Part shown: positions 1 to 9,000 of the stretch, one piece after another
How the letters are laid out: each line of letters opens with the position of its first letter
Position numbering within the stretch: the stretch's first letter is position 1
Assembly: GCA_036338595.1 (NCBI GenBank)
Contig: JAYZBV010000019.1
Location: 1-55,549 of the forward strand
Length of the DNA stretch: 55,549 nt
Direction of reading: 5' to 3'
Source: Planctomycetota bacterium
Lineage (GTDB): Bacteria; Planctomycetota; UBA8108; UBA1146
Position numbers: made by a program

Positions 1-3000
1 GGGGGGGGGGGGGGGGGGGGGCCCCCGCCCACCCCACCCCCGCTTTCACTGGCGTCAGGGTGATTCGCTTCCTTCGCCCTGCATCGAAGGCTTCGCCTGG
101 TCGTGTGACCCGCTCTCTTCTTGCTGACCCCACTTCTCAACTCTACGATCCAGTTGCTCGATGGAACCAACAACTGGCTCCATCCAGTAATGCGGTCAGG
201 CGCTGGAGAATTGGTTGGGAGTGTTGATGGCGATCGCTTCGATTTGCGAACATTGCGGTTCAGGATTTTCTGCGCCAGACGCAAGCCTCGGCAGTGGGGT
301 TTCTTGTCCCACCTGTGGCAAGAAAACCAAGGTCCATGATGAGGCGGGTGTCCGTGAAATCGAGGAGAAGATCCGCAGCAAACAGAGACGGGAGCAGGAC
401 TACAGTTCGCGGCTAGCGCTTCTGAGGGAACTGGAGGAGAAGGAGCGCCATGATGGCAACAGGGGTGCGATCGAGGACTCGATTCGCAACTTTCAGCCGC
501 GCATGGGGACCAGAAATCGGCGGCTGAGGTTGCTGGGGCACATGTTGATGGTGATCGCCTGGACGATCTTTGGAGTTGCCCTGGTTCTCGCCGTCATCGC
601 CGCCATTGATCAAGGGGTCGGCGGAATGGTCGCTTGCACTCTGTTTGTGCTGGCGGGTGTGTTCGGATTTGCTGTCGTGAAGTTTCTCTCCGAGGCGAGT
701 TACTCTCTTGCAGAGATTGCCGACAGACAATGGGATATTCGTGCACTGCTGCTCGATCTATGCGAGGAACAGGAGCGGCAGAAAGAGAGCGAGAACCGCT
801 GACTGCGGTTCTCGGACCCTCACTCGGTGAAGAAGAAGTCGAGAGCACCCTTGGCAGAACTCCCGAACTCCTTATCCAGTGAGACCTTCTTCTGAGGCCT
901 GTTGCGGATCTCCTCGAAGATGGCGTCCAGTTTCTCGCAGGCGGCGCGTGCATAGAGGCGAACCATTCCGACAGTGGTCTGGTCGTCGAAGACGGTCGCC
1001 ATGATGGTCCTGTTGCCGACCATGGAAAGCTGGATGCTATCGCGCTTTCCCTGGTGGAAGAGAACCGAGAACTCGTCCTCTCCCAGCAATTTGGCCATCT
1101 CTCGGGTTGCTGCGTACGATCCTGCGACCAGGGCAGCGACGGTTTGCTCGTCGATGGAATCTGTATCTCCACCGCTGGTCACCATGTGCCCTTCCTTGTC
1201 GATGAGCAGATTGCACTTGCTGCCACTGAGCTCGAGAAATTCTGCGAGAATGACATCGATCTGTTCGATGTCGTCGCTGTAGAAGACTATTCGCTGGTTG
1301 CGTAGATGATCGCTATCGGTAACCACTGTACTGTTTCCTCCCGTGCTCAGGGCATGATCCGGATGATACCGGCGAGATGCAGCAACACGGTTGCTGCGAC
1401 GATCGAGGTCAGGACCAATCCCACAACCATCGATGTGCGACGCTTTCTGCGCCGAGGAGATGTAACGAGTACTGGTCGCGCACCATTGGATGCGGTGCGT
1501 ACCGTTGGCGCCTGAGCGACGTTTCTCACGGCACTGACCGATGCTCGTGTCCGGGCGCCGGCTCCAGATACCTTCGCTGCTCCCTGGGCGTGCCTGGTCA
1601 CGGCCCTGGAGGTGGCGACTGCAGTAGCAGTGGCGCTACCACCTGAGGAGCTTGCAGAGCCTTTGGGTGCCACCACCGAGGGGGACCTTCTCGGGGCGTG
1701 GTTCTCATTGAGAGATTCCAGCACCATTCCGGCGAGTCTCTTGAGGGTCGGAAAGACACCCTGACCATCGCGAGCTACCGCCTCGAAGTGGGGCGCATCC
1801 CAGCTGTTGAGTGCTTCTTCCAGTTCCTCGACGCTGTAGACATCCGGCAGGTCTCGCTTGTTGTATTGCAAGATGATCGGCGTGTTGGCGATGTCGAGCC
1901 CATGCTCCTTGAGGTTTTCCTCCAGGTTTTTCAGGCTCTCGATGTTTTCATTCATCTTGCCTCGCTTGGAGTCTGCGACGAAGACGACTCCATCCGCTCC
2001 TTGCAGCACGAGCTTTCGAGTGGAGTTGTAATACACCTGCCCGGGGACGGTGTAGATCTGGAATTTCGTCTTCATCCCAGCCACCTGTCCCAGGTTGAGG
2101 GGGAGGAAGTCGAAGAAGAGGGTTCTGTCACCCTCTGTTGCGATGCTGGTGAGGTCGCCGACACTGGTGTCGGGTGCCTTCTGGTGTACCACCTCGAGGT
2201 TCGTGGTCTTGCCACTGAGCCCCGGGCCGTAGTACACGATCTTGCAATTGACTTCTTTCAGCGAGAAGTTGATCTGTACCATGTTTCACTCTCCATGATC
2301 GTCCGAAACCCTGTTTGTCAGGAGATCCGGAACTCGAGGATTCCGCTCAGCCGTATTGCAATGCTGCGGATTTCTAAAAGACCTGTATTCAATTCAAGGC
2401 CCGCATGAGTCATCACTGCGAGCGTCGCTCCTTCGAGGTTCATCAGTAGCAGGTTGCCGCCTTCTGCCTCGAGGATCACTTCCTCCGGCACTTCGCCCGA
2501 GCAGTGCATCGCCGCGCGATTCACCGCGAGCCGTGCCGTCGAGGAAAAAGCTGCAACACACTCCTCGTCAATTTCTTCCGAGAGCCGCGAAGCTACCGGA
2601 ATGCCATCGTCAGTCATCACCATGCTTCCGAGCACTCCAGGGATCGCGTTCAATTTCTCCAGCAGCGGGTTCATCGAATCGTCTCCCTTCCCCGGTCACT
2701 CTCGAGCCAGCGGCCGAGTGAGGATTCAAGCGATTGACGCTTGCAATGAGAGACGATCATCGATCCTGATTCTGCGAGACCGATCAGCACTCCACCGGCT
2801 CCCCGGGCGGTGAACTTCGAGAACTCTCCCAGTCCCATCCTTGGAGTTGCCTGGTAGAGCGACCCAGTGAGCACGGAGAGGGTCTCCGTCATCTGCTGAC
2901 CGTGATCTGCCCCGTCGCTGCAGGCGACCAGCGAGCGGGAGGCATCTACTTCCCAGACATCGAACTCTCCAGGAGCGGAGATCAGTTGTCTGCTGGTTTC

Positions 3001-6000: not shown

Positions 6001-9000
6001 AGATGGTACTTCGCAGCACCTCCACAGCTCTGCCTGGCAATCGTTGTTGAATCAGACGGTCTGCCAGCGCTTTCTTCTCCGTGGTTGGCATCGGTTCGAG
6101 CAGACCGCGCTCGACCAGGTTCCTGGCCGAGTTGAGGGCCAGGAAGCGAGGTGTTCCTGTCGATCGAATCACATCATGCAGTGGGCATGACTGCTGTAGA
6201 GCCCTGACGAATTTGTTGCGCAACGGTTCGAGTGGCAAGGTTGTTTCGATGGCTCGAGCCAGGCTGTCGACATCTGCAGTCGAGAGGAAGATTTCGTGGG
6301 AGTGAATGTTTGTCTGCTTGAATCTACTTTCCTCATCTTCTCTGCGTGCGACTTCGAGAAGGAGTGACGGGATGGGGAATCGCAGTGAGGGGGAGACCGC
6401 TTCTCCGGTGAAGAGTCGATCTTGTTGCCAGGGGCATACTTCGAAGCGGTAACTGGCTTCCTGCCACCGGAACAGTTCGAGAATTCTCTCCAGGAGAAGG
6501 GTTCGGATCGGGCCGATCACCATCTGTGTGTCGAGCAACCGGAATCGCAGCAGGGCATCCCCCATCGCGGTCTTTCCCTGATTGGCCAGGATGTTGGCCA
6601 GTTCCTCCTGCTGGAGAATGTCGAGCCCGGTCAGGATCTCGCCGAGCAGGCAGGATCCCCGATCGGAGTCGGCGAGCAATTCCACACCGCGTGGATCGAT
6701 ACCGAGACGTATGGCCAGATCACCGCTCTCTATCGATAGAATGCCGCTGTTGCGGTTGGTATCGAGACCCTGGAGCAGGGCCGAGAGCGGTAAATTTTTG
6801 ACGTCACCTTGGAGCATCCCGGCACATCGGAGCCCGGGCCGGGGACTCCGCCTTCAGAAAAGATTACGACGCACAGGGCCGAAGCGTCGAGTCGGTTCCT
6901 TGCTCCTGCCCTGCGCCGGTGAGTAGGATCAACGCACATCAGCCCGATACACGGAGGAGAGCCATGAACACGACAGACGAGGCCCAGCTCATCATCGACG
7001 CCAGCGAGAGGGAATCAGACCTTCTCTGGGCATCCGGCTTCCTCGCCGGCGATGCGTTCACCTGGGTCAAGGATGCCCGCGGCAGTGCGGTGATGCTGAC
7101 TGATCTCGAGTTCGGGCGTGGAGAGAAGGAGTCGAGCGTCGATGAGGTACTCGCCTATTCTGCGCACGAGAAAGCGGCACGCTCGGAAGATGGGGGTCCG
7201 GTGCCGTTCGAGGAGGTTGTGCTGCAGTTGCTCCGGGAGCGTGACATCCAGCGAGTGCGCGTGCCGGCGCGTTTCCCACTGCAGGTAGCCGACCATCTCC
7301 GACGCGCCGATGTCGAGGTGTGCTGTTCGCGCGATCCATTCTTCCCGGAACGATCGATCAAACGAGCCGACGAGATCGCTTGTCTGGAGGAGTCTCAGGC
7401 TGCGACAGAAGCGGCGATGTTGATGGCGATCGATGCAGTGAGACGAAGCGAACCCGGCGAAGGCAATGTACTGCAACTGGACGGCGAGCCGCTCACATCC
7501 GAACGGCTCAAGTCGATGGTGCGAGCCTTCTTGCTCGAGCAGGGCTATCAGATCGGTCCCTTCATCATCGCGCCGGGGGATCAGGGTTGTGATCCGCACG
7601 ATGTGGGAAGTGGTCCGCTTCACGCACAGGAGACGATCATCATCGACATCTACCCCCAGCACATGACTCATCGATACTGGGGGGACATGACGCGCACCGT
7701 TGTCCGAGGAACTGCCTCCGATCAGCAGAAAAAGATGCATGCTGCCGTGCTGGAGGCTCAGCAGAGGGCCATCGACATGATCCGCCCCGGCGCCAGTGGA
7801 GATGCGATCCATCAGCGCGTCCAGCAGGTCTTTGTCGATGCCGGTTTCCCGACCGAGAAACGAGACGGTACCTGGGTCGGATTTTTCCATGGCACAGGTC
7901 ATGGGGTCGGACTCGACATCCACGAGTCGCCCCGGATTGCTCGAAACGGACCGGTGCTGGAGGAGGGCATCGTCGTCACCGTCGAACCGGGACTGTACTA
8001 CCCCGGCCTCGGTGGCTGTCGGCTCGAGGATGTGGTGCTGGTGACCGGGGATGGGTGTCGCAACTTCAATCGCGCTGGCAAGGATCTGGAGGTCTAGTCG
8101 ATGGACTCCAGGCGGACGCCCTCCATCGCCGAGTGGTATCACGAGGAAACCAAGTATTCGCCCCAGTTGATGGGGCTACTGCCTCGTTTCGACCCGGACC
8201 AGAGACCGATGCCTTACAAGCAGTGGCACGCCGAGCGCCCCGTCGACCTGGTTCCTTACCTGCCCTTTCCCGGCTTTCCGCTCGGGCCCAGGCCGGATCA
8301 GCAACCGATCGATCCGGAGACGCTGTCCGAGTTCGTCGGGGCCCTGTCGCGTATCCTTTACTTCACCAGTGGAGTGACCGGGATCCAGCAGGATGAGAAT
8401 GAGTCGTGGTTGTTTCGAGCGGCTCCGTCGGCCGGGGCGCTCTATCCGACCGACATCACCCTGGCCCTGAGAGGCATCCGGGGCCTCGACGATGGGCTCT
8501 ACGCCTATTCGGTACCTCATCACCAGCTGGTCTCGGTGATCGATGGAGACTTTCTGCCAGGGATCGCCAGGACCTTCTGGGATCACCCTTCCTTCGACGG
8601 CATCCATGCCATGGTGCTGCTCAGTGGTGTCTGGCAGCGATCCCGCTGGCGCTACCACGACCGTGCCTATCGACGCATCCTGCTCGATACCGGCCATGTA
8701 CTGGGAAATCTGGTCCACGCGGCCCATCAGGAAGGGCTCCAGGCGATCCCGCTGGCAGGGTTCGAGGACGCGGCGCTGCAGAAGTTGCTGTTCCTCGATT
8801 CCGAGCAGGAGGGGGTGCTGGTCGGAGTGCCGCTGGGACGATCGGACGATGTCGGTGCTTCCGATGGGCTCACTGCACCGGTGAAGCGCTCGGCGAGATC
8901 GACGGCGCCCCCCGATCTTGAACTCGACCCCATCGTCGCTTTGCACGAGACCAGTGCCATGAGCCACGATGCCCAGGTCAGTCTTCCTCCCGACCCACCA

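Follow-up and report, generated by a model that had tools for sequence, protein, structure and literature searches.

The closest described counterparts of the locus reported here are the Group-1 MglA/MglB systems of Myxococcus xanthus and Thermus thermophilus (PDB 6h17, 6izw and 3t12), in which MglA is a free, untethered protein of approximately 195–200 aa that relocates between the cell poles. In M. xanthus, a second stand-alone roadblock protein, MglC, is likewise found beside MglA/MglB (PDB 7CT3 and 7CY1). In actinobacterial conservons (CvnA-D), a conserved operon likewise unites a small GTPase with a roadblock protein and a membrane protein, but they involve Group-2 MglA, their membrane protein is a histidine kinase, and the part of their description available to us mentions no tail anchor on the GTPase. 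Miro provides a tail-anchored parallel. Eukaryotic Rab/Ras proteins with Ragulator-type roadblock heterodimers share with the present unit a G domain, a flexible tail, a membrane anchor and roadblock partners, as far as the accessible parts of the sources describe (PMC10933270, PMC9481161), whereas the anchor considered here is a peptide helix rather than a prenyl group and the catalysis is of the MglA type, so that the likeness is one of analogy and not of descent. Bacterial tail-anchored proteins share the single C-terminal helix and the lack of a signal sequence (PMC3087755; the word GTPase is absent from its main text).

The window, that is, the whole 55,549-nucleotide stretch of Planctomycetota DNA analyzed here, carries a five-gene unit in the order DUF4388-TPR-TM-propeller (A), TPR-roadblock (B), roadblock (C), MglA (D) and MglB (E), as summarized in Table 1. 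The unit shares with the Myxococcus/Thermus systems the MglA core, the G21/R53/Q82 numbering and an adjacent MglB with a C-terminal helix, but differs from them in the 117-residue tail of MglA with its predicted membrane-spanning helix, in two more roadblock domains and in a bitopic neighbor, gene A.

Table 1. Features of the MglA locus in the window
Feature	Position	Strand	Basis
Terminator-like hairpin just after mglB (weak)	790..814	-	10-pair stem
MglB orthologue (gene E), 168 aa, with C-terminal helix region	820..1326	-	profile match
MglA ORF (gene D), 311 aa	1347-2282	-	
Predicted C-terminal TM helix (residues ~283-307), four trailing residues and stop	1347..1436	-	KD 2.35, model helix, conservation
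RRRKRR basic patch at residues 277-282, predicted to flank the helix on the cytoplasmic side	1437..1454	-	sequence
Disordered Ala/Ser/Val/Arg/Thr-rich basic linker	1455..1700	-	composition, pN/pS 0.65, pLDDT<50
MglA GTPase core (residues 1-194)	1701..2282	-	PDB 6h17 match, invariant motifs
Gene C, 118-aa stand-alone roadblock/LC7 protein	2318..2674	-	Pfam E 2.3e-11
Gene B, 346 aa, TPR array and C-terminal roadblock domain	2671..3711	-	model, profile match
Gene A, 1015 aa, predicted to cross the inner membrane once	3770..6817	-	Pfam, hydropathy

M. xanthus MglA (PDB 6h17) aligned to residues 3–193 of the window MglA (E 8e-70), and a hand count from this alignment gave 108 identical residues out of 191, reproducing the 57% identity stated in the first-pass annotation. 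According to the accessible parts of earlier reports, an intrinsic arginine finger beside the G2 threonine distinguishes Group-1 MglA (PMC4316618, PMC3199381). The corresponding pair R53-T54 was invariant in 59/59 MglA cores, as were G21, T78-Q82 and N141-D144; the G3 TVPGQ and G4 NKxD motifs were likewise present (NKRD in the window MglA), and an MglB orthologue lies adjacent. With 311 aa, the protein exceeds the single-domain range of 150–240 aa, which served as the working limit of the 2014 reference survey, where, as its available part states, anything above 240 aa was discarded. Judged by these sequence features, the window protein is an intact Group-1 MglA. Literature searches yielded no description of an MglA with a membrane-spanning C-terminal tail, such lengths having been excluded from the 2014 survey, and a second MglA was not found in the window genome (88%-complete).

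The tail begins with a low-complexity linker whose presence had been annotated correctly, although its length is about 85 rather than ~95 residues. Residues 195–277 contain 12 K/R and no D/E, and in the structure model the pLDDT was below 50 at residues 202–281. The annotated basic patch and single C-terminal hydrophobic helix were both recovered: pN/pS was 0.11 over residues 275–282 among 13 close relatives, the best 19-mer (residues 289–307) reached a Kyte–Doolittle (KD) value of 2.35 against a maximum of 0.70 in the core, and the model placed a helix at residues 283–303. Moderate sequence conservation of this helix was indicated by a pN/pS of 0.51 (uncorrected). Only 39 of 10,000 shuffled tails attained KD 2.35, and a lone C-terminal hydrophobic segment occurred in just 5 of 1,700 long ORFs of the window genome. 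By hydropathy, the helix is the sole hydrophobic segment of MglA, is located at the extreme C-terminus and is accompanied by no N-terminal hydrophobic signal; the basic residues preceding it suggest that the N-terminus lies inside, by the same reasoning as in PMC3087755. The proposal that MglA is tail-anchored is well supported by conservation, with membrane insertion itself predicted from hydropathy and the model.

MglA matches were obtained in 45/59 class genomes, one of which (G036) was only 23% and E 7.5e-4; its exclusion left 44/59, the window genome counted, in accordance with the earlier figure. All 43 readable class genomes, including those of other orders, encoded the terminal hydrophobic helix, with KD>=1.6 in 42 and 1.43 in the weakest, and class members share a conserved consensus motif behind the helix. 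The check outside the order, which the first-pass annotation had left open, also found the tail in other classes of Planctomycetota, where 50 of 53 complete loci had the helix (40 terminal, 10 with a further 28–143 residues), and 112/120 top database relatives possessed it as well. A taxon was named for only 2 of 20 clusters looked up, so that helix-anchored MglA is documented here for Planctomycetota only. The polybasic patch held up in the window's own family (f1), in which all 25 members have 5–7 K/R among the 12 residues before the helix, but not as a general feature, 1–4 K/R being typical elsewhere. One locus by a contig end encoded a 207-aa MglA without the tail, and another an MglA with a TPR-like tail and no helix.

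This conservation refutes an assembly or read-through artefact, in which a normal MglA would have acquired a spurious extension. The low-complexity linker and the single draft genome might have raised that suspicion, which we consider exceedingly improbable, given the same layout in the 43 genomes, indels that are all in frame among aligned close relatives, and RNA-library contigs from two studies that cover the helix region without indels. These contigs, from runs in which such sequences made up only small shares, span sections of mglA and extend across into mglB, and are no measure of transcription or its level. A Tat-exported, periplasm-facing C-tail (cf. the accessible part of PMC10924467) was rejected because the protein shows no evident signal peptide and its GTPase depends on GTP in the cytoplasm.

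The three complete loci of other classes that lack the helix all end in an amphipathic Lys/Phe helix, and the B-C-D-E loci of two families likewise terminate in a basic aromatic amphipathic helix. The hydrophobic moments of these helices were 0.70–0.86, and the motif recurred in 24 of 120 relatives of this form. Membrane-targeting helices of the MinD type offer a parallel, although MinD, in the part of the source available, belongs to the ParA-type ATPases and has an anchor that is reversible (PMC13537761). The presence of an amphipathic helix instead of the membrane-spanning one in the exceptions suggests that selection acts on membrane attachment as such. In a FastTree phylogeny of 246 cores, the amphipathic forms fell among the helix forms; since a single helix clade was compatible with the AU test (p 0.14; 52 rows picked by hand) and the outgroup did not form one side of a branch, the tree fixes neither the direction nor the number of anchor swaps. 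These data also bear on the reading that the tail serves chiefly in protein binding or processing, in that it would engage an intramembrane partner or be cleaved to free soluble MglA. The conserved motif after the helix and the periplasmic extension added in some lineages would suit such a role, but a generic lipid anchor accounts better for the varied helix sequences and for the exchange against an unrelated amphipathic helix within the same gene unit; we consider this reading very unlikely.

The annotated operon with TPR and DUF4388/beta-propeller genes corresponds to genes B and A. Gene A matched Pfam DUF4388 at residues 3–163 (E 8.5e-11) and PQQ_2 (E 4.9e-21), with a predicted helix near residues 461–479 (KD 2.17 at 461); its DUF4388 and TPR-like region at the N-terminus would be cytoplasmic and its C-terminal PQQ/BamB-like beta-propeller periplasmic. 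For gene B, a TTG start was assumed (alternative ATG at 3690). Its model (pLDDT 92.8) consisted of TPR helices followed by an alpha/beta domain, and gene B gave a profile match to gene C (probability 97.7, E 2.5e-12); Robl_LC7 was detected in 12/110 family members, and fold searches with the model, which barely probed the roadblock part, returned TPR matches only. Of the two flanking roadblock genes described previously, the MglB orthologue and gene C were both substantiated, but the roadblock domains number three, gene B ending in one. The gene E profile matched M. xanthus MglB up to its C-terminus (E 4.6e-41), while its NF052242 score of 97.8 bits was under the cut-off of 200. The name "MglC-like" for gene C found no sequence support: a PDB search with its profile (111 sequences) ranked generic roadblocks best (7f8m, E 6.7e-18), with MglB at 2e-4, and MglC chains were missing from its hits at E<=0.001, the MglC-MglB identity itself being only ~9%. 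B and C accompany MglA in 60/60 phylum loci, the roadblock genes and MglA occur in exactly the same 44 class genomes, and MglB adjoins MglA in 72/80 and 52/60 loci of two sets. Complex prediction for B, C, GTP and the MglA core scored 0.02 (mark, 0.32) and was counted neither for nor against a complex.

As a long flexible tail with a membrane-spanning end is kept within a conserved unit, MglA probably works tethered to the membrane, in a manner reminiscent of eukaryotic Ras-type proteins, and we regard the tethered switch by itself as highly probable. MglA would reside permanently in the inner membrane through its C-terminal helix, from which a flexible basic tether would lead to the GTPase domain on the cytoplasmic side. 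By analogy with Myxococcus and Thermus, the MglB dimer would stimulate hydrolysis through R53 and Q82 of MglA itself; B and C may form a second regulator or a scaffold by pairing of their roadblock domains, and gene A may connect the switch with a site or signal in the periplasm. A membrane-spanning anchor cannot detach, so that position would be encoded by the site of GTP-loading, with lateral diffusion and local regulators, instead of release and recapture between poles. The full explanation, a membrane-held Group-1 MglA switch patterned by local regulators with a pilus-like output as the likeliest, is favored at slightly better than even confidence. "Polarity GTPase", as the protein had been labeled, is an analogy to Myxococcus. 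In that organism, MglA drives pili via a TPR protein, according to the available part of PMC11580455, and the window genome has PilM, PilO, a secretin, PilT and a PilB-type ATPase; FliF was not found in this 88%-complete genome, nor any pilus gene in the examined stretch of the window. Pilus genes including PilM and PilT were present in 59/59 class genomes, and their co-occurrence gives the pilus link no support because 15 of these lack the module. The likeliest candidate output, if a tentative one, is that the switch places or activates type IV pilus-like machines.

Alternatively, the unit might be an envelope-signaling or -assembly switch unrelated to pili, in which the periplasmic propeller of gene A would sense or organize a site in the envelope, with the tethered GTPase relaying or gating this. 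Gene A, with its BamB-like propeller, adjoins in 69/80 loci; a TPR protein that binds MglA in Bdellovibrio shows co-expression with tamAB-like genes (PMC3983030), and in conservons a membrane kinase is coupled with an MglA-family GTPase (PMC4316618), both as stated in the accessible parts of these reports. Against it, the genus g7 keeps B-C-D-E and the tailed MglA with gene A in 0/8 loci and no strong match elsewhere in its genomes, and the BamB score of gene A was 67 against a curated cut-off of 285 bits; we judge this switch unlikely. A division-site or shape regulator replacing part of the FtsZ system appears less probable still. The host is indeed FtsZ-less (0/59 class genomes; control, 13/14), MreB is present in the window genome, and proteins that position division, such as MinD, have similar tethers (available part of PMC13537761). 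An essential replacement would be present in all FtsZ-less relatives, but the module was found in 25/31 good-quality FtsZ-less class genomes and was missing from 6, and is therefore no obligatory FtsZ substitute, which weakens the link to FtsZ-less division that had been implied. None of the 10 genomes of genus g24 has the module, nor does a 96%-complete genome; in two of these, the neighboring gene lies between other genes on an unbroken contig. MglA was detected in only 229/401 phylum genomes, a lower bound.

Judged from MglA matches and sampled tails, the membrane-fixed form occurs in over half of the sampled Planctomycetota genomes. Tran et al. found the G-domain/flexible-tail/membrane-anchor layout missing in Asgard Rabs and, in the part available, ascribed it to eukaryogenesis (PMC10933270); by our reading this layout exists in bacteria too. 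The current model of MglA is that of a small protein moving between poles, and a fixed form would need a different patterning logic; the natural fixed and reversible anchor variants offer a direct way to test what membrane cycling does, and the five-gene unit is a defined candidate for cell-surface organization in a phylum with unusual cell biology. A far-reaching extension, which we consider rather doubtful, is that Planctomycetota run a Rab/Ras-like membrane-identity system independent of eukaryotes, comprising a hypervariable-tail, fixed-anchor MglA, a homodimeric roadblock GAP, an opposing heterodimeric TPR-roadblock/roadblock activator and a trans-envelope receptor; nucleotide state would mark membrane domains, and some lineages would have swapped to a reversible anchor and expanded MglA to at least 10 paralogues.

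At the margins of the unit, the hairpin scan returned 2 sites versus 4.1 expected by chance, and the promoter scan remained at chance level. The gene at 215-802(+), which encodes a Cys-pair N-terminus and two hydrophobic helices, came into question as an MglB partner of the GltJ type but was excluded from the module because it is kept in 9/10 g24 genomes and in G040, all of which are without the module.

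As listed in the table below, the five genes of the unit lie head to tail, with successive gaps of 58, -4, 35, and 20 bases, and a genome-wide search of the source genome found a single MglA.

Genes of the five-gene unit (contig positions)
Gene	Position	Strand	Features
A	3770-6817	-	DUF4388, TPR-like region, one helix, beta-propeller
B	2671-3711	-	TPR array and roadblock domain
C	2318-2674	-	roadblock
mglA	1347-2282	-	311 aa, tailed MglA
mglB	820-1326	-	true MglB orthologue, C-terminal helix region included

The strong match to M. xanthus MglA reported by the first-pass annotation was confined to the N-terminal part of the protein (residues 3-193; E 8e-70; 108/191 residues identical, counted by hand on the printed alignment). 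As R53, T54, TVPGQ, and NKRD were invariant across 59/59 MglA cores, the GTPase looks active, judging from these catalytic residues. The linker, rich in Ala, Ser, Val, Arg, and Thr, was of low complexity as had been claimed and was basic (12 Lys/Arg, no acidic residue), but the length of ~95 aa given to it was too long, the linker spanning residues 195-277; the RRRKRR patch was confirmed at residues 277-282. A structure model (mean pLDDT 61) placed a helix at residues 283-303 behind a disordered stretch (202-281), and the Kyte-Doolittle hydropathy of the tail (best 19-residue window, 289-307) peaked at 2.35, against a core maximum of 0.70. Since only 39 of 10,000 tail shuffles scored at least 2.35 (near the end, 426 attained 1.6 or more) and since, among 1,700 ORFs of at least 200 aa called crudely in the source genome, 5 had a single hydrophobic segment situated at the terminus, the probability of a chance origin of the terminal helix is low. 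Uncorrected pN/pS among 13 close relatives was 0.09 in the core, 0.65 in the linker, 0.11 in the basic patch, and 0.51 in the helix region. Contigs from the RNA libraries of two studies spanned 1227-1571 and 1346-1562 without indels, which confirmed the reading frame of the tail, though not thereby its expression.

A class-wide search bore out the presence of MglA in 44 of the 59 class genomes, the source genome counted and one 23% match left out. Except for one MglA cut by a contig end, all (43/43) finished in an aligned hydrophobic segment, which reached a hydropathy of at least 1.6 in 42 of the 43 readable genomes, with all seven families represented. Among 80 named loci, labelled Planctomycetota (the close ones UBA1146, which we take to belong to class UBA8108), 71 had the helix, 8 were cut, and one, near a contig end, was a tail-less 207-aa form. 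MglA matches were present in at least 229 of 401 phylum genomes. From the matches listed (150 of 379), 60 other-class loci were hand-picked, of which 5 cut and 2 partly unreadable ones were excluded; among the remaining 53, 40 had the terminal helix, 10 the helix plus 28-143 further residues, and 3 no helix. The tail, left unchecked outside the order by the first-pass annotation, was thus found in every class family and in other classes. Its polybasic patch held for the window's own family (f1), with 5-7 Lys/Arg within the 12 residues before the helix in 25/25 genomes, but not more widely (1-4 in 44/50 other-class loci among the matches listed), so that the patch would be the usual cytoplasmic flank, stronger in this family. 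Records L080 and L092, titled Bacillota and Proteobacteria, contain this planctomycete-type locus at 85-90% identity and are probably mislabelled bins. Genomes G066, G095, G153, G129, and G321 (L210-L238) have expanded MglA sets of 6-13 matches each, the longest open frames reaching ~1,300 aa. Visual inspection suggests kinase-like, STAS-like, pentapeptide-like, and leucine-rich parts in the extensions.

The three helix-less other-class loci and the B-C-mglA-mglB loci of families f15 and f51 ended in short Lys/Arg- and Phe-rich helices with hydrophobic moments of 0.70-0.86 (e.g., KKGFLGRLFRIFKK and LFRKFKKFLD). At L212, L213, L214, L152, L173, and L174, operon MglAs from three Planctomycetota families, an amphipathic Lys/Phe helix occupies the terminus in place of a membrane-spanning one. 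In one locus, the MglA tail was TPR-like and the anchor absent. The 120 relatives of one amphipathic-type MglA comprised 88 with the hydrophobic helix and 24 with the amphipathic motif. By patterns drawn up after the sequences had been seen, the best 150 cluster representatives fell into tail-anchored (51), helix plus extension (12), loose amphipathic (27), and unclassified (60); two amphipathic clusters bear the name Zixibacteria. We assume that the Lys/Phe helix resembles the targeting helix of MinD. A C-terminal amphipathic helix is the membrane anchor of MinD (PMC13537761). That two unrelated anchor types end the same linker suggests that selection maintains membrane attachment itself.

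Regarding the partners, the two roadblock genes said to flank mglA did not account for gene B, which also carries this domain, and the MglC-like label of gene C was not upheld, as a profile search gave no match to MglC at E<=0.001. The roadblock genes and MglA occurred in the same 44/59 class genomes; B and C stood beside MglA in 60/60 other-class phylum loci hand-picked among the matches listed, and the 80 named loci contained B in 79, C in 80, and A in 69. TPR-roadblock clusters akin to B in Gemmatimonadota offer a lead only. DUF4388 is presumably the PATAN domain. PATAN genes have been reported near Group-1 mglA (PMC4316618). In 8 genomes of genus g7, gene A was not in place, and a search at E<=1e-25 did not recover it; distant families that do possess A went undetected at this cut-off as well. 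At L081-L084, L086, L088, and L101 of this genus, A is lost in place, with B-C-mglA-mglB and both flanks retained. A convergent gene at 215-802 (+), with two N-terminal Cys pairs, two hydrophobic helices, and no Pfam family above cut-off, is conserved next to the operon within the class, yet persists where the operon is lost.

A tethered MglA switch is most likely the mechanism. Anchoring of MglA in the membrane is predicted with high confidence, and the full mechanism including its output has at best about an even chance. Judging from sequence and conservation, the C-terminal helix would sit in the inner membrane, with the G domain facing the cytoplasm on a flexible basic leash; MglB would act as GAP, as orthology suggests (PMC3199381), and, from gene order, B:C may form a second roadblock pair and A an envelope link. 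In the Myxococcus model (PMC13408092), MglA relocates via the cytosol; a fixed anchor would rule this out and imply patterning by local nucleotide state. The source genome has PilM, PilO, secretin, PilT, and PilB-type ATPases, and pili are under MglA control in Myxococcus (PMC11580455) as well as in Bdellovibrio. Pili are therefore the favoured candidate output; this proposal draws on analogy, since pilus genes occur in 59/59 class genomes, module present or absent. An obligatory role of the module as a substitute for FtsZ might be envisaged, as the host was indeed FtsZ-less (FtsZ in 0/59 class genomes), but is unlikely because the module is missing in 6/31 good-quality genomes of this FtsZ-less class.

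This variant of the MglA/MglB switch, with its predicted membrane anchor, is real, is conserved phylum-wide, and was apparently not previously described: the literature searched, with most subscription journals outside its coverage, held no account of a membrane-anchored MglA or the five-gene unit. The reference MglA survey (PMC4316618) excluded sequences >240 aa and had no word starting 'planctomyc' in the main text, and 'Mgl' was absent from the main text of a 2026 preprint on predatory planctomycetes, whose supplements may list such genes. Database names for such MglAs are generic, frequently 'signal recognition particle receptor subunit beta'.

Most class genomes also carry a second PilM-like family with open frames of ~620-750 aa, far longer than PilM. 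About 12 kb separate pilT and a pilB-type gene from the gene for a second DUF4388 protein (981 aa; G000:C37:63689-66634; L239:15690-18632), which is a paralogue of gene A. At 9885-12714 (-), two tandem genes of ~400-450 aa have, by eye, an outer-membrane beta-barrel look with aromatic C-terminal residues.
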